A stretch of DNA of 64,000 nt, taken from the NCBI GenBank assembly GCA_944390895.1, contig CALXRQ010000002.1, positions 12,016 to 76,015 of the forward strand. The letters run 5' to 3'. This DNA is from an uncultured Alphaproteobacteria bacterium. Lineage in GTDB: Bacteria; Pseudomonadota; Alphaproteobacteria; RF32; CAG-239. Within the stretch, counting starts at the first letter, position 1. Each line of letters begins with the position of its first letter. The position numbers were made by a program, and so were the translations under genes. This document shows positions 54,839-64,000 of this stretch, piece by piece. Below the pieces are notes generated by a model. That model was given only the letters and a program-made list of their open reading frames with translations. It was not told where the DNA came from and made no database searches.

Positions 54839-56512
54839 ATGGTTCAAAACATTATTAAATTATTGTCCCTGAGTATGTTCTTAGCTTCTCTGCAGGTCGG
54901 AGAAGCTTTTGCGCAGGAAAACAGTTTGGACCAGAGTGCCGACCAGGATCAGGGGCAGTATCGTTCCATGGACATGAGCTATGCCGGTTTCGGTTCCATC
55001 GGCATGATGCAGAGCGCCTGGCTCGATCCTCTGCAAAATCTGGGCGAAGGTCAAAGTAAACCGGCTTACTCCAAATATTACTGGTCGCCGGATTTGGTTT
55101 TGCCGATCCGTTTGCGCGAAGGTATGATTACACTGATTAATTTTCCGTCCTGGGAAATGGTGGAAGATGTTTTTATCGGTGACAACTCAACATTTGACGG
55201 GCAGATTTCCGGGCCGAACACGGTTTTGCTGTATCCTCGTAAGGGAGCAAACGTCGGTGTCGATACCAATATCATCATTTTCGGCCGGTCCGGCAACCGC
55301 TATGTGTTTTATGTCCGCAGCGAAGGTGTCAACACCGAGCGCTTAACCAATGCCATTATTGATATTGACGTTATCGGCGCAGACAGCGGAAGCGATAACG
55401 GTTTCAGCGGCGGTGGCCGTGTCGGCGGAGGAGGACGCGGTTCGTCCATGGGTTTTAGCGGAAGCAGCTCGAAATCGGTTGCTTCTACCTACACCAAAAG
55501 ATTTCAAAAAGAAGATTGGCTGAAATCTCTGCCGGTTGATCCGGAAAAGTTTCGCTTTGACGTTGAGGTCTATGTCCCTAATCCCGATGATGTGGTAATT
55601 GCGCCCGAACGCGTATGGCGCGACGATATTTTTACCTACATTGACTTGGGAGCCAAAGCGCTGAACATGAACCAGCGTCCGATTGTAACCCTTATTAACG
55701 AAAAGGTCGAAACGCCGGTCGGTTTCCGCAGCAAAGGACCGAACAACCGGTTGATTGTGGTTGAGGCTGTCGGCGATTTGGTGCTGCGCAACGGCAAGCG
55801 CATTGTCTGCCTTAAACTGCGTCGTTCCGATTCTGCCGGCTTGGAGAATGCTATTTATGCCAATGATGAAATTCCGGGCTGGGACGTTCCGCCGCCGCTG
55901 AAGAGCGGAGATCTTGAAGCTGCTTTTAACCCGTCGCAGAACGCAGGAGCGCAAAGCGGCGGAGATTATCTGCCTCTGAGCGGTGAAAACGGAAAAATGC
56001 CCGCGCAGTATGACGTTAATGTCGGCGGCTCAGAGCTGATTGTTCCCCAATACGGCCGGGGACAGTCGTTTTCCAACCAGCCGAACATCGGTTATCAACA
56101 GCCGGGAACCGCCGGTGCGCAAATGGCCGCCGGTAACTACGACTACTCTAAAATGCAGCGTTTGCCGAACCAGTCGGAAGCCAACGCCGCCAACGGCAAC
56201 AGCAAATATCTTCAGCAGTTTGCCTATGGCACCGGTTTTACCGATACCGGCAACGCCAATATTTCCATTGAGCTCGGAACCGATGCCGATGTCAGCAATC
56301 TGGAAGGCCTCTGGGATGAACTAAACCGCAAATACACCCGCGACTTGGCCGGTTATGAGCCGTTTTATTCCGTTGACACGCCGGCCGACGGTCAGGGCAA
56401 GGAGTTGTTCCACCTGCGCGTCGGACCGATAAAAACTCTTGAAGAAGGCGATGCCATTTGTTCAAAATTAGGCCGCAATGGCGTATTTTGTAGTGTAGTC
56501 AGGACCCAATGA
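54839..56512 (+). CDS. VirB9/TrbG/CagX-family protein with Gly-rich linker and C-terminal SPOR domain
   Basis: The N-domain is VLPIRLREGMITLINFPSWEMVEDVFIGDNSTF..TNIIIFGRSGNRYVFYV. The C-domain is APERVWRDDIFTYIDLG...LVLRNGKRIVCLKL. The terminal FHLRVGPIKTLEEGDAICSKLGRNGVFCSVV is SPOR-like. Confidence 0.75.
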   Translation: MVQNIIKLLSLSMFLASLQVGEAFAQENSLDQSADQDQGQYRSMDMSYAGFGSIGMMQSAWLDPLQNLGEGQSKPAYSKYYWSPDLVLPIRLREGMITLINFPSWEMVEDVFIGDNSTFDGQISGPNTVLLYPRKGANVGVDTNIIIFGRSGNRYVFYVRSEGVNTERLTNAIIDIDVIGADSGSDNGFSGGGRVGGGGRGSSMGFSGSSSKSVASTYTKRFQKEDWLKSLPVDPEKFRFDVEVYVPNPDDVVIAPERVWRDDIFTYIDLGAKALNMNQRPIVTLINEKVETPVGFRSKGPNNRLIVVEAVGDLVLRNGKRIVCLKLRRSDSAGLENAIYANDEIPGWDVPPPLKSGDLEAAFNPSQNAGAQSGGDYLPLSGENGKMPAQYDVNVGGSELIVPQYGRGQSFSNQPNIGYQQPGTAGAQMAAGNYDYSKMQRLPNQSEANAANGNSKYLQQFAYGTGFTDTGNANISIELGTDADVSNLEGLWDELNRKYTRDLAGYEPFYSVDTPADGQGKELFHLRVGPIKTLEEGDAICSKLGRNGVFCSVVRTQ

Positions 56513-63300: not shown

Positions 63301-64000
63301 GGGATGCCGACGGCAACATCATCGGCTATGTTGATGAAAACGGCAATATCGTTGATGCTCAGGGCAAGGTTATCGGCCGTGTTGATGAAAACGGCAACGC
63401 TTTGGATATGAACGGTAAGCCGTTGGGCCGCGTTGATAAAATCAGAGAAATGGTTGGCCGTAACGTTAACCCGGACAATGTGGTTGACAAAGACGGCAAC
63501 ATTATCGGCAAGAAACTTGCCGACGGGCGCGTCGTCGACAAAAACGGTAATCCGCTCGGCCGTATCGACGCCAGCGGTTTCCTGCGCGATTCTTCGGGCA
63601 ATATCGTCGGTTATCAGGCCGACAGCCGTAATGTCGTTAATGAAGACGGTCAGATTATCGGCCGCCTGCAGGACGATAATAATGTTGTTGATGCTTCCGG
63701 CAGGGTAATCGCTTCAAAAGACCAGAATGGCAATATTGTTGATGCTCAGGGCAAAGTCATCGGAATTCTGGACGACAACCGCGCCGTTCGCGATGACAAC
63801 GGCAAAATCATCGGACACGTTAATAACGATAATAAAATTATCGACTTCAAAGGCAAGGAAATCGGTTTTATTGATGCGGCCGGCCGAGCTGTAAACAAAT
63901 TGGGCAAATTGCTGGGAAAAATGTTTTCTGACGGGCGGGTCTTTGATGAAAACGGCAATCTGGTCGGTTATCTTCAGGCCGACGGATCAGTTGCCGACGC
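60393..64000 (+). CDS. >=1202-aa secreted repeat protein, 3'-truncated by window edge (not in ORF track)
   Basis: The TTG start at 60393 lies 6 nt after GGAGGA. Hand translation of the whole frame shows no stop up to 63998. It begins LKRKYNGQAGLFSQLAKVFAFAFCVAFLLSKNVSAQ|EITAVDFNGDLIGKV.., and the same repeat type continues to the window end. Confidence 0.8.
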   Translation, partial: MKRKYNGQAGLFSQLAKVFAFAFCVAFLLSKNVSAQEITAVDFNGDLIGKVIPDGNVVSFDNRLIGNVTADSLIVNFDGELIGGVIPQGIAVGNDTNFLGKVTSDGTVRLPSGKVVGKVLPNGLVVDDYYNILGAVLFPGLVYDDDGKTVGRLTGDGLYTNLKGQPVGFITPDGYAYRKVGEDYLLDGKLISSKMVVSLNGDFLGSVVPGGEVSDFDGSVIGRIKANGFVYNEQNAIIGSIVKSSYAFDNFGRYLGLVTYNGEVISKDKLVGRIRADGKIVDDKNSEIGFAMDIAATVSDLQGRYLGRIMPGGKIAKARDIIAEVGPRGDVLDENGKIRGRVTAVGPVFDYKAALIAHALSNTQVISLNGNGIGRMIGREAYNHQGRMMGLVAQPSLVINADNSVAGITGINSRVKDGDVSKRVSPFGYAFMPDGTFAGMSMPIALVYNQIGARIGNIGLNGRVMNFSAEELGRLTQSGIVVDERNLILGRPIDAAFAVDGSGSVLGELAENNLLIDKNKNIVAKIIPDNSVVKTSEAGSTSMMPRAGTAFSRNIAVDFDGTLSGYVDLNGSVKNFDGTTVGRVLDNAYVLDNNGILSGYVIANRIAVDNKCAQKGIVTSRGEVRNFKDIYIGRVLTNRQVIDETGNSVAYTVTPAAVIDFNGNITATLSGTGEMINYAGEILGCLDKKGVVKNKNGAVIAKPVEYFPVIDFKGNIIGRITLDGSVIGPDNRTLGNMQPDDNVNSRTGAPLGTLFKYAVAFDNNNRYLGRVAADGSVRGSGSENVGKVLFDGTVVSGSRKIGYALYDFYVYDNDFNAVGIIGKDGEVKSFGNRSLGQLQRGFVVAADDTVIARGNRDFNIRDHANIVLGELSLNGEVRSSSGEIVGRLGNAGAINDKNGAVIAVAKPLQYYSRVNAVVSTEGESGDLAVTADGKILGSVDENGNVVDKDGNIVGIQDSKGNIFKERTVVRDADGNIIGYVDENGNIVDAQGKVIGRVDENGNALDMNGKPLGRVDKIREMVGRNVNPDNVVDKDGNIIGKKLADGRVVDKNGNPLGRIDASGFLRDSSGNIVGYQADSRNVVNEDGQIIGRLQDDNNVVDASGRVIASKDQNGNIVDAQGKVIGILDDNRAVRDDNGKIIGHVNNDNKIIDFKGKEIGFIDAAGRAVNKLGKLLGKMFSDGRVFDENGNLVGYLQADGSVAD

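Follow-up and report, generated by a model that had tools for sequence, protein, structure and literature searches.

Proteins 1 and 2, encoded by adjacent genes of an uncultured gut alphaproteobacterium, are probably together a two-gene version of VirB10, housed in a divergent VirB-type type IV secretion system that uncultured gut Alphaproteobacteria encode on the chromosome. Ordinary VirB10 combines an inner-membrane helix with an outer-membrane channel (PMC6362355). Repeat-expanded VirB10 proteins are already known (CagY and DotG), and the new element is the two-gene layout. No publications on a two-gene VirB10 were found; its orthologues are already named in databases.

The genes lie at the end of the stretch of DNA that was analysed (the window, 64,000 nucleotides). 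Positions 54839-64000 are identical to a public contig, L013 (0 mismatches in 9162 nt), which extends beyond base 64000 and covers the rest of protein 2 and then virB11. The first-pass annotation assigned both proteins to a type IV secretion operon, which the conserved gene order from virB8 to virB11 bears out. Upstream of protein 1, the window contains the following genes:

52994..53746 (+): virB8 paralogue a, 250 aa (Pfam VirB8, E 3.7e-13), syntenic across all related loci
53868..54056 (+): lipoprotein candidate of 62 aa, VirB7-like by position only, with a signal sequence ending in LLSGC
54078..54812 (+): virB8 paralogue b, 244 aa (Pfam VirB8, E 4.9e-26)
54839..56512 (+): virB9, 557 aa (Pfam CagX at residues 78-325, E 4e-13)

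Paralogue b also matches NCBIfam VirB8 (E 3.6e-15), under the cut-off of that model. A gene of 62-69 aa lies between the two virB8 genes in L010-L014, and VirB9 bears an extra C-terminal SPOR domain (residues 484-555, E 1e-4). Gene order was read at twelve related loci and is conserved at all 12 as far as the contigs reach. The order virB8, small lipoprotein, virB8, virB9, protein 1, protein 2, virB11 is found in L001-L008 and L012-L014, and the VirB11 encoded downstream of protein 2 matches TIGR02788 (E 1e-41). No polytopic VirB6, VirD4 or relaxase was found within the 64-kb window.

Protein 2 is identified as VirB10 by its C-terminal domain. The window cuts the protein at residue 1202 of 1741; the earlier figure of at least 1202 aa thus holds as a lower bound, and the actual length is 1741 aa (L013). 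In the full-length protein, the repeats are followed by a Gly-rich linker, a TrbI domain (residues 1422-1610; Pfam E 6.2e-37, 127.7 bits, cut-off 35) and a Pro/Ser-rich tail ending in VPQLF at 1741. The TrbI domain (PF03743) is present in 9 of 9 protein 2 orthologues from species-representative genomes. Profile searches of the PDB with the C-terminal region match ComB10 (2bhv, 1e-24), CagY, Xanthomonas VirB10, TrwE and TraF. The NCBIfam models for ComB10 (4e-35, 121 bits) and the VirB10 domain (8e-32, 110 bits) match as well, at scores below their equivalog cut-offs of 300 and 220. In sequence alignment, the region of the barrel where VirB10 proteins have the helical antenna of the outer-membrane pore is covered by a stretch aligned to ComB10 residues 128-232 without large gaps, and region 197-290 of protein 2 aligns with the ComB10 helical stretch. 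The first-pass annotation had seen no VirB10 C-domain in either protein and had itself named the detection of one as refuting; this claim falls, as the domain lies in protein 2 past the end of the window, invisible within it because the window stops 539 codons early. Two new fibre proteins that replace VirB10 would fit the window taken by itself, where TrbI is detected in neither protein, but that reading is ruled out by TrbI on the identical contig L013 and in all of the orthologues.

Protein 1 (ORF 56509-60390, + strand) is 1293 aa long, and its ATG overlaps the TGA of virB9 as ATGA at 56509-56512. Both giant ORFs are real and translationally coupled to virB9, as had been proposed. The features of protein 1 are:

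56509..56631 (+): cytoplasmic tail (residues 1-20) and predicted transmembrane helix (about 21-41), from hydropathy
56770..57123 (+): ASH/PapD-like Ig domain (about residues 88-205), from Pfam ASH, Foldseek and alignment
57181..58578 (+): regular 17-residue beta-hairpin repeats (about residues 225-690), scoring 10-22 bits with the unit HMM
58579..60387 (+): degenerate repeats (about residues 691-1293) with a conserved tail ...EVAKNRRN, from profile matches

Both the N-terminal topology resembling that of VirB10 and the Ig-like domain after it, read earlier from the window, are confirmed. The helix is the single strong transmembrane segment of protein 1 (hydropathy peak 2.92, residues 21-39); it and the signal peptide of protein 2 were called by sequence rules. 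A cytoplasmic tail motif, S-E/D-x-Y-x-K-K-x-N (by eye), occurs in three of the four sequences read, namely two unsplit VirB10s and one protein-1 type, and is absent from P0104. Pfam ASH (PF15780) matches every one of the 17 family members at E <= 1, the best at 7.6e-8; the copy in the window reaches E 0.0023 and 18.5 bits, under the cut-off of 27. Foldseek matches the Ig domain to VesB/VesC Ig, HYDIN PapD-like and CEP192 ASH domains with probability 1.00 over 97-138 aligned columns, the model itself being of moderate confidence (AF2, pLDDT 60-74). The family alignment contains two invariant Cys pairs in this domain (C99, C110, C159 and C162). No TrbI domain was found in protein 1 (Pfam search; hhalign probability 0.5%).

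The second gene begins almost where the first one ends. The junction and the parts of protein 2 within the window are:

60380..60395 (+): gene junction with Shine-Dalgarno GGAGGA, TAA and TTG, from sequence reading
60393..60497 (+): Sec-type predicted signal peptide (residues 1-35, cut between VSA and QE), from presequence comparison
60498..61397 (+): conserved mature N-terminal block (residues 36-335), from profile, alignment and AF2
61398..63212 (+): degenerate repeats (about residues 336-940), with weaker unit-HMM scores
63213..64000 (+): second regular repeat array (about residues 941-1202, cut by the window), scoring 10-17 bits with the unit HMM from residue 942

The Shine-Dalgarno sequence GGAGGA (60380-60385) lies within the last codons of protein 1, and protein 2 opens at a TTG (60393) 2 nt past the TAA of protein 1 and runs stop-free for 1202 codons to 64000. 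Across nine loci that span 41-92% identity and come from different assemblies, the stop is present in 9 of 9 and GGAGGA in 7 of 9, and the start follows 2-3 nt past the stop. Over its final 30 residues protein 1 reaches 75% conservation vs 44% overall, part of which may stem from the embedded Shine-Dalgarno sequence. The Sec signal suggested earlier for protein 2 is of the AxA type and is kept across variable presequences: 33 distinct presequences of 12-41 aa precede the conserved mature start of protein-2 types, and among 40 such N-termini the residue counts are A35/V4/S1 at position -3 and A37/S3 at position -1. The signal-peptide block is 27% conserved vs 71-83% immediately downstream. The block of residues 36-335 is the most conserved part of protein 2 and lies inside the repeat array; mature residues 41-200 reach 71-83% conservation vs 48% overall. 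AF2 models residues 36-335 entirely as beta-hairpins (pLDDT 90.6, pTM 0.83).

The two proteins are homologous to parts of a VirB10 that sister lineages of uncultured gut Alphaproteobacteria encode in one gene. The 120 best relatives of protein 1 were sorted by architecture into three main types: 51 carry the N-terminal module and TrbI in one chain (median 2189 aa), 35 carry the N-terminal module without TrbI (protein 1 type) and 32 carry a signal peptide and TrbI (protein 2 type, median 1603 aa). The one-gene VirB10 of these lineages (~2200 aa) starts with a short cytoplasmic tail, a single helix in the inner membrane and the ASH/PapD-like Ig domain. About 100 beta-hairpin repeats of 17 residues come next, then a Gly-rich linker, the beta-barrel of TrbI and finally a tail rich in Pro and Ser. 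In L010 and L011 this one-chain form lies between virB9 and virB11 and the protein-1 gene is absent; in the one-gene relatives P0038, P0069 and P0104 the tail and helix are on the same chain as the barrel. Against a profile of unsplit VirB10 built from 47 one-chain proteins, the tail/helix region of protein 1 aligns from position 2 onward and residues 3-502 match positions 2-487. The protein 2 orthologues all begin at position 359 and are colinear through to TrbI; their conserved block matches positions 359-631 in five of six (359-509 in L006) and aligns with the unsplit proteins almost without gaps. The degenerate repeats of protein 2 are colinear, with gaps, with positions of about 792-1707.

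The split is real and old. It is present at 11 of 11 loci that include the junction, and protein clusters number 35 for the protein 1 type and 32 for the protein 2 type. That it is a sequencing or assembly artefact or a recent pseudogene can be set aside with near certainty: beyond the existence of one-gene relatives nothing speaks for such a reading, and the same junction in 9 loci, the 35 + 32 clusters and the well-formed signal peptide speak against it. The TrbI domains of the split type form one clade in a neighbour-joining tree without support values, in which some short sequences are fragments, and the tree is consistent with the split having arisen once.

The layout of the two genes suggests more than a clean break. 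Residues 553-969 and 871-1283 of protein 1 each match profile positions of about 233-658, and residues 988-1255 align with residues 41-315 of the L001 orthologue of protein 2 (92% identical to that of the window) at 32% identity with 9 gaps. By sequence comparison, one ancestral segment appears to be present in two copies, as the C-terminal ~300 residues in protein 1 and as the N-terminal ~300 in mature protein 2, and partial duplication followed by reciprocal loss would explain the layout better than a clean break. This model is based on the profile matches and on one near-gapless alignment that tied in score with a gapped alternative; pairwise comparison gives the degenerate repeats no unique placement. 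Together, proteins 1 and 2 exceed the one-gene form by ~830 residues, which leaves room for a separate role of protein 1.

Protein 1 could accordingly be a paralogue that arose from the 5' part of virB10 and took a new job, as a periplasmic scaffold or regulator anchored in the inner membrane and comparable to DotF beside DotG, leaving protein 2 to do the job of VirB10 alone and without a membrane anchor. We consider this unlikely, though worth weighing. The extra copies of the 233-658 segment in protein 1, by which the two genes exceed their ancestor, would fit such an origin, as would the variation in length of protein 1 between lineages (1092 to 1576 aa), and there is a precedent in Legionella, where DotF, a distinct protein of the inner membrane, interacts with DotG and controls the energy-transducing activity of DotG (PMC6761968). 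However, proteins 1 and 2 co-occur, with coupled translation, in every locus that spans both, and protein 1 retains the cytoplasmic tail motif and helix of one-gene VirB10 while protein 2 has lost both. Because the helix is on protein 1 only, there would be no VirB10 link to the inner membrane without protein 1.

The repeats belong to the beta-flower group of families (PF21785, PF21784 and PF12396, the last being DUF3659; clan CL0395). The first-pass annotation described dozens of repeats of about 16 residues; the repeats are real and far exceed shuffled controls, and their period is 17. Residue identity at a lag of 17 is 0.19 in protein 1 and 0.21 in protein 2 vs 0.08 +/- 0.007 in shuffles. 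The motif [DNEQ]xxGxx[IVLA]G, which contains the tip motif [DNEQ]xxG, occurs 30 and 26 times, whereas shuffles give 2.4 and 1.7 (at most 7 and 5), with copies mostly 17 residues apart. With a unit HMM, 46 units are recovered in protein 1 and 41 in the portion of protein 2 inside the window, where regular repeats return near residue 940 (about nt 63210), as had been noted. In proteins 1 and 2, respectively, Bflower_2 matches at E 1e-83 (276.5 bits) and 1e-70 (234.7 bits; cut-off 38), with its best stretches at residues 477-573 and, in the window part of protein 2, 1117-1202; Bflower matches at 117.7 and 104 bits (cut-off 25). DUF3659, a likeness already named in the first-pass annotation, scores above the Pfam cut-off of 24.8 in both (2e-31, 107.9 bits; 6e-19, 68.1 bits). 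The motif [DNEQ]xxG at the hairpin tip is a semi-conserved beta-flower motif (PMC10584680). AF2 models the repeats of protein 1 as hairpins (EEEEE----EEE-----, pLDDT 75-89 over about residues 400-670), and short antiparallel strands with alternating loops add to the likeness. The beta-flowers described so far stand as small single domains, about 100 aa in length and in many cases on lipoproteins (Durairaj et al. 2023, PMC10584680), whereas here arrays of 60-100 hairpins form part of a secretion-system subunit. In the beta-flower fold the hairpins form a closed, shallow barrel of 8, 10 or 12 strands (4-, 5- or 6-fold); those here may close in this way or build one continuous sheet. No literature linking the beta-flower/DUF3659 family to type IV secretion was found, and Foldseek against the PDB gave no Tubby-like or other global match to the repeat models.

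A further likeness is to RHS repeats. Pfam RHS_repeat matches protein 1 (E 2.7e-12, 47 bits) with no single significant stretch and protein 2 under its cut-off, and in a Foldseek search with the protein 2 model, Rhs cores and teneurins rank highest (E down to 2.7e-8). With TM-scores of only 0.09-0.14, this likeness is local, at the level of the hairpin, and not global. An RHS/YD shell protein (Tc toxin BC, T6SS Rhs, teneurins) was considered and rejected, as the Rhs core, toxin domain and cage-closing elements are missing. One source names one orthologue a 'YD repeat-containing protein'.

Compared with the VirB10/TrbI family (PF03743; A. tumefaciens VirB10, R388 TrwE, pKM101 TraF and H. pylori ComB10), protein 2 shares the TrbI barrel and the placement between virB9 and virB11, and with protein 1 it provides every VirB10 module. 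Ordinary VirB10 is 4-5 times shorter, has a short extended linker where about 1400 repeat residues and the Ig domain sit here, and carries anchor and barrel on one polypeptide instead of two. The parallel drawn earlier with CagY and DotG is apt, both being VirB10 homologues that carry repeats. CagY (about 1900 aa) has large repeat regions before its C-domain and is part of an expanded machine (PMC9371333). Its repeats are alpha-helical modules according to Delahay 2008, as that work is cited in PMC9371333, whereas those here are 17-residue beta-hairpins, and CagY is one chain. DotG (IcmE) of Legionella and Coxiella has a TrbI C-domain, a variable repeat-bearing middle and the separate inner-membrane partner DotF (PMC6761968); unlike protein 2, it retains its own membrane anchor, and its repeats are pentapeptide repeats. 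Protein 1 clearly derives from VirB10, and there is no evidence here of DotF deriving from DotG.

Exposure to the host and recombination have been suggested for the repeats of CagY and DotG (PMC6761968), and the arrays here might likewise lie on the cell surface, where they would attach to host or prey and evade recognition by varying, in line with what is proposed for the repeat region of CagY. The differences in array length between lineages would agree with this, yet we regard it as quite improbable. CagY rearranges by repeat recombination, whereas the DNA copies here, spaced by multiples of 51 nt, are only 60-78% identical (maximum 87%, in one 23-nt copy), with no long tandem DNA repeat; Tandem Repeats Finder reported trivial arrays only. 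Copies of such low identity offer no substrate for recombination of the cagY type. Three contigs of the same species, with 99.7-100% identity to the window, also encode proteins of exactly these lengths (1293 and 1741 aa). In addition, protein 2 is most conserved within the array, and the region N-terminal to TrbI is expected to be periplasmic.

In the two-gene VirB10, which we consider the probable explanation, the halves would reassemble in the periplasm. Protein 1, which has retained the tail, the helix and the Ig domain along with about 60 hairpins, would be held in the inner membrane. Protein 2, with a predicted cleavable Sec signal at the site that corresponds to residue ~359 in the one-gene form, would contribute about 75 hairpins and TrbI. 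The first-pass annotation had suggested a fibre that might extend from the cell; by topology both arrays are expected to be periplasmic. They would meet there, probably through their unusually conserved free ends, although these ends could serve other partners. Such non-covalent contact would restore the connection across the envelope for which ordinary VirB10 uses a single chain. The arrays, which one AF2 model (residues 36-335 of protein 2) suggests are rigid, may act as a periplasmic scaffold that enlarges the machine, much like the additional domains of the Cag and Dot/Icm machines. We think it possible, at somewhat less than an even chance, that this is a natural split VirB10 in which an inner-membrane sensor half and an outer-membrane pore half re-join in the periplasm, perhaps by pairing of the paralogous ~300-residue blocks of protein 1 and mature protein 2 or by completion of a shared hairpin domain. 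If this is true, type IV secretion can achieve envelope-spanning coupling with an interrupted chain, and long beta-flower arrays would be a self-associating periplasmic building material.

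The window is a chromosomal segment that includes rpsA, malQ, sugar-transport genes and tRNAs, and its nearest named relatives are uncultured gut Alphaproteobacteria assemblies from sources that include human gut and roe-deer reticulum. From about 40.0 kb on, the + strand holds a type IV secretion cluster with the following parts:

40039-40410, 40457-40885 and 40895-41629, + strand: three VirB2/TrbC-like pilin paralogues in tandem
41794-42084, + strand: VirB3-like ORF, 96 aa, overlapping the start of the VirB4 gene
+ strand, after the VirB3-like ORF: VirB4
44574-52973, + strand: six unassigned ORFs between virB4 and virB8 (351, 369, 235, 393, 230 and 1217 aa)
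+ strand, before VirB9: two VirB8 genes flanking a 62-aa lipoprotein
54839-56512, + strand: VirB9, 557 aa
56509-60390, + strand: protein 1, 1293 aa
60393, + strand: TTG start of protein 2, 2 bases past the protein 1 stop, with GGAGGA 7 nt upstream

All core subunits score under the NCBI equivalog cut-offs. Among the pilin paralogues a Pfam match is found in the third only, at 26.6 bits, slightly under the cut-off of 27.9; this paralogue also has a 150-residue extension containing Cys. Each of the six ORFs between virB4 and virB8 encodes one hydrophobic segment, at the N-terminus. None of the six has a family match, and several have weak coiled-coil-type matches only. The largest (1217 aa) is kept in related loci at 26-92% identity; its assignment as a giant VirB6 was rejected on its single N-terminal hydrophobic segment and the absence of a Pfam or NCBIfam match. 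Searches across the 64-kb window for VirD4, a relaxase and a polytopic VirB6 found none. The VirB9, roughly double the usual length, has a C-terminal SPOR (peptidoglycan-binding) domain at residues 484-555 (E 1e-4, 23.1 bits, cut-off 21); the VirB9 proteins of L010 and L011, two related loci with a one-gene giant VirB10, have CagX alone on record.

Other loci precede the cluster, and a complete-looking type IVb pilus cluster adjoins the secretion genes:

21182-24172, - strand: three-gene run of a 493-aa protein, a PP2C phosphatase and a VWA-domain protein
28056-39739, - strand: type IVb pilus cluster with three PilS/bundlin-type pilins, T2SSF, PilO, secretin and TcpQ
31248-32936, - strand: GspE/PilB-like ATPase within the pilus cluster

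The 493-aa protein weakly matches a class IV lanthionine synthetase (LanL). The pilus cluster also holds a 583-aa ORF that has no match, and a separate T2SSE-family ATPase (335 aa) lies at 25314-26321.

Proteins 1 and 2 are coupled to virB9, as the first-pass annotation had noted, with the start of protein 1 overlapping virB9 as ATGA. The protein 2 frame is open to the window end (1202 codons). The junction between the two genes is kept in nine loci: protein 1 has its stop, a Shine-Dalgarno sequence lies within its final codons, and protein 2 starts 2-3 nt past that stop. An exact look-up with protein 1 gave no match, and one with the window VirB9 led to contig L013, which is identical to the window over 9162 nt (0 mismatches, window 54839-64000) and extends past its end. 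On L013 protein 2 is 1741 aa long, carries the Pfam VirB10 C-terminal domain TrbI at residues 1422-1610 (E 6.2e-37) and is followed by virB11, so protein 2 is the VirB10 of the system. The earlier reading of these ORFs as giant repeat proteins that lack a VirB10 C-terminal domain is thus overturned: the VirB10/TrbI domain that it had named as the finding to speak against it is present in protein 2, just beyond the window.

Protein 2 was also scanned against species-representative genomes, giving nine loci at 41-92% identity. Where a locus extends far enough, the gene order is virB9, protein 1 orthologue (1092-1576 aa), protein 2 orthologue (1399-1740 aa) and VirB11 (322 aa). All nine protein 2 orthologues end in Pfam TrbI, and their C-terminal profile matches the solved structures of ComB10, CagY, Xanthomonas VirB10, TrwE and TraF. 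Among solved and curated relatives, the barrel is closest to ComB10, from the DNA-uptake system of Helicobacter, a kinship that is a lead to the purpose of the machine and not a conclusion. TrbI was not found in protein 1 by Pfam or hhalign. The sole hhalign match of TrbI to protein 1 is non-significant and falls in the region of LIRPDGSIFVFDG, a TrbI stretch at residues ~1590-1606 of protein 2 in L013 and the related locus L001. This stretch resembles one repeat unit (a similar unit in protein 1 is PDGSIVDFSG); the likeness may be fortuitous, or it may point to where the repeat came from.

Three main types emerge among the best 120 protein 1 relatives. The N-terminal module of protein 1 occurs without TrbI in 35 of the 120 clusters and together with TrbI in a single chain (median 2189 aa) in 51; another 32 combine a signal peptide with TrbI (median 1603 aa), and the last two are fragments truncated at the N-terminus. 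In the one-chain proteins a cytoplasmic tail leads into a transmembrane helix; next come a domain that carries two pairs of Cys, the repeats and TrbI, and the chain closes with a tail that is acidic or rich in Pro. Three of four sequences read by eye share a motif in the cytoplasmic tail. In L010 and L011 the one-chain protein lies between virB9 and virB11, and a separate protein 1 gene is absent. The domain that follows the helix, which had been described as Ig-like, is an ASH/PapD-like Ig domain: Pfam ASH matches 17 of 17 members (best E 7.6e-8), and Foldseek matches it to domains of VesB/VesC, HYDIN and CEP192. A PDB sequence-profile search with the protein 1 N-terminal domain returned chance matches only. 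The shared N-terminal module, the one-chain genes and the Ig domain therefore identify protein 1 as a separately encoded VirB10 N-terminal module. Together, proteins 1 and 2 hold every module of the one-chain giant VirB10, and their genes are coupled. In public annotation the orthologues are called "DUF3659 domain-containing protein" and "TrbI/VirB10 family protein". L011 also has, at 25063-26642, two adjacent genes of the mTERF domain (PF02536), a family typical of eukaryotic organelles.

The topology of the two proteins agrees with the first-pass annotation. In protein 1 a short Lys-rich tail precedes a single strong hydrophobic helix (residues 21-39). In protein 2 and 39 relatives, 33 different presequences of 12-41 residues precede one conserved mature start, with A, V or S at position -3 and A or S at -1, and in protein 2 the presequence block is 27% conserved versus 71-83% directly downstream. 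The pattern is typical of a cleaved Sec signal, which is predicted here, so the barrel protein would be without the inner-membrane anchor carried by ordinary VirB10 (PMC6362355). The anchor sits on protein 1 instead.

Both proteins are dominated by repeats. The repeats had been described as units of about 16 residues; they are real and beyond chance, but the period is 17. Residue identity at lag 17 is 0.19-0.21 in proteins 1 and 2 versus 0.08 +/- 0.007 in shuffled sequences, there are 30 and 26 copies of the core motif, respectively, versus about 2 in shuffles, the spacing of the DNA repeat copies is in multiples of 51 nt, and a hidden Markov model of the unit finds 46 units in protein 1 and 41 in the window part of protein 2. 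The DNA copies are only 60-78% identical, indicating that the arrays are old. Pfam Bflower_2 matches both proteins (E 1e-83 for protein 1 and 1e-70 for protein 2), as do Bflower and DUF3659, the family to which the first-pass annotation had likened the repeat. The Bflower families were set up in 2023 for the beta-flower fold, which was recognised in predicted structures and for which no function is known (PMC10584680).

The AlphaFold2 model of protein 1 residues 60-700 (11 sequences) is moderate (pLDDT 64, pTM 0.33), with pLDDT 75-89 at residues ~400-670, and consists of hairpins throughout in the pattern EEEEE----EEE-----. Protein 2 residues 36-335 (17 sequences) are likewise modelled as hairpins throughout (pLDDT 90.6, pTM 0.83), and at least this block is predicted to be a rigid body. 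Foldseek searches with both models against solved structures found no match to the global fold of the array. The best matches are Rhs and teneurin shells (E down to 2.7e-8, TM-scores near 0.1); this likeness is at the level of the single hairpin and agrees with a weak Pfam RHS_repeat match.

A TrbI search of the full library returned 4439 relatives. Roughly half of the top ~70 are giants of 1000-2400 aa, and the others are mostly fragment-like; beyond these, lengths drop to 500-630 aa, and therefore the giant VirB10s form a distinct sub-family. In a neighbour-joining TrbI tree the split-type (two-gene) sequences all fall in one clade, with a few short probable fragments among them, and one-chain giants fill several other clades. 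The tree, which is without support values, suggests that the split arose a single time, from an ancestral one-chain giant. The two-gene arrangement is old and has been conserved.

Pairwise placement of 100-residue array pieces on the one-gene VirB10 was uninformative: each piece lands on the most regular repeats, and its second-best score is nearly as high as its best. Best matches for the final 60 residues of protein 1 in the one-gene proteins are inconsistent (~320, 615 or 1500) and were not used. Placement was made instead on a profile of 47 one-chain proteins. Protein 2 orthologues all begin at profile position 359 and are colinear to TrbI, with some deletions and an added regular array before TrbI. 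Protein 1 covers positions 2-487, after which two further stretches of it match ~233-658. Mature protein 2 aligns at its N-terminus nearly gap-free to one-chain positions 359-650, and also to protein 1 residues 988-1255 (32% identity, 9 gaps); thus protein 1 ends, and mature protein 2 begins, with a copy of the same ancestral segment. These sequence comparisons support, short of proof, an origin in which part of the gene was duplicated in tandem, with reciprocal loss afterwards, over a clean break. In the first of these alignments, read by eye, one-gene VirB10s have several conserved Cys in segment 359-650 (motifs GxGC and IGC), and all split-type proteins are without them; disulfide stabilisation may have been lost after the split.

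VirB10 is the one subunit known to bridge the inner and outer membranes with a single chain, and it is thought to relay energy-dependent signals to the outer-membrane gate. In the split system, protein 2 would enter the outer-membrane core complex through its TrbI end, alongside VirB9 and the lipoprotein, protein 1 would stay in the inner membrane, and the two arrays would associate in the periplasm and so re-establish a link across the envelope. Conservation is highest at the free ends of both proteins (protein 2 residues 41-200, 71-83% versus 48% overall; last 30 residues of protein 1, 75% versus 44% overall), which would fit a docking role. Part of the conservation of the protein 1 tail may instead be due to the embedded Shine-Dalgarno sequence. 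The arrays probably form a rigid scaffold in the periplasm and so make the machine larger, by analogy with the Cag and Dot/Icm systems, in which added domains do so (PMC9371333).

Among known systems, CagY and DotG come closest; both are VirB10 homologues that repeats have enlarged. The repeats here are 17-residue beta-hairpins, whereas those of CagY are alpha-helical modules (PMC9371333) and those of DotG are pentapeptide repeats (PMC6761968). The present system also differs from both in the absence of recombination-prone DNA repeats, in its very large array and in having the protein divided between an anchored and a secreted half. Literature searches found no paper linking the beta-flower or DUF3659 to type IV secretion or describing the giant VirB10 orthologues, and nothing relevant on secretion systems of gut Alphaproteobacteria. 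Proteins 1 and 2 thus represent a third, structurally distinct kind of repeat-expanded VirB10 beside CagY and DotG, and they give the beta-flower repeat its first clear functional setting, as the bulk of a probable secretion-system scaffold. The hosts are common uncultured Alphaproteobacteria of human and animal guts. The split in a widespread lineage whose sisters are unsplit is a natural experiment on whether covalent continuity of VirB10 is needed.
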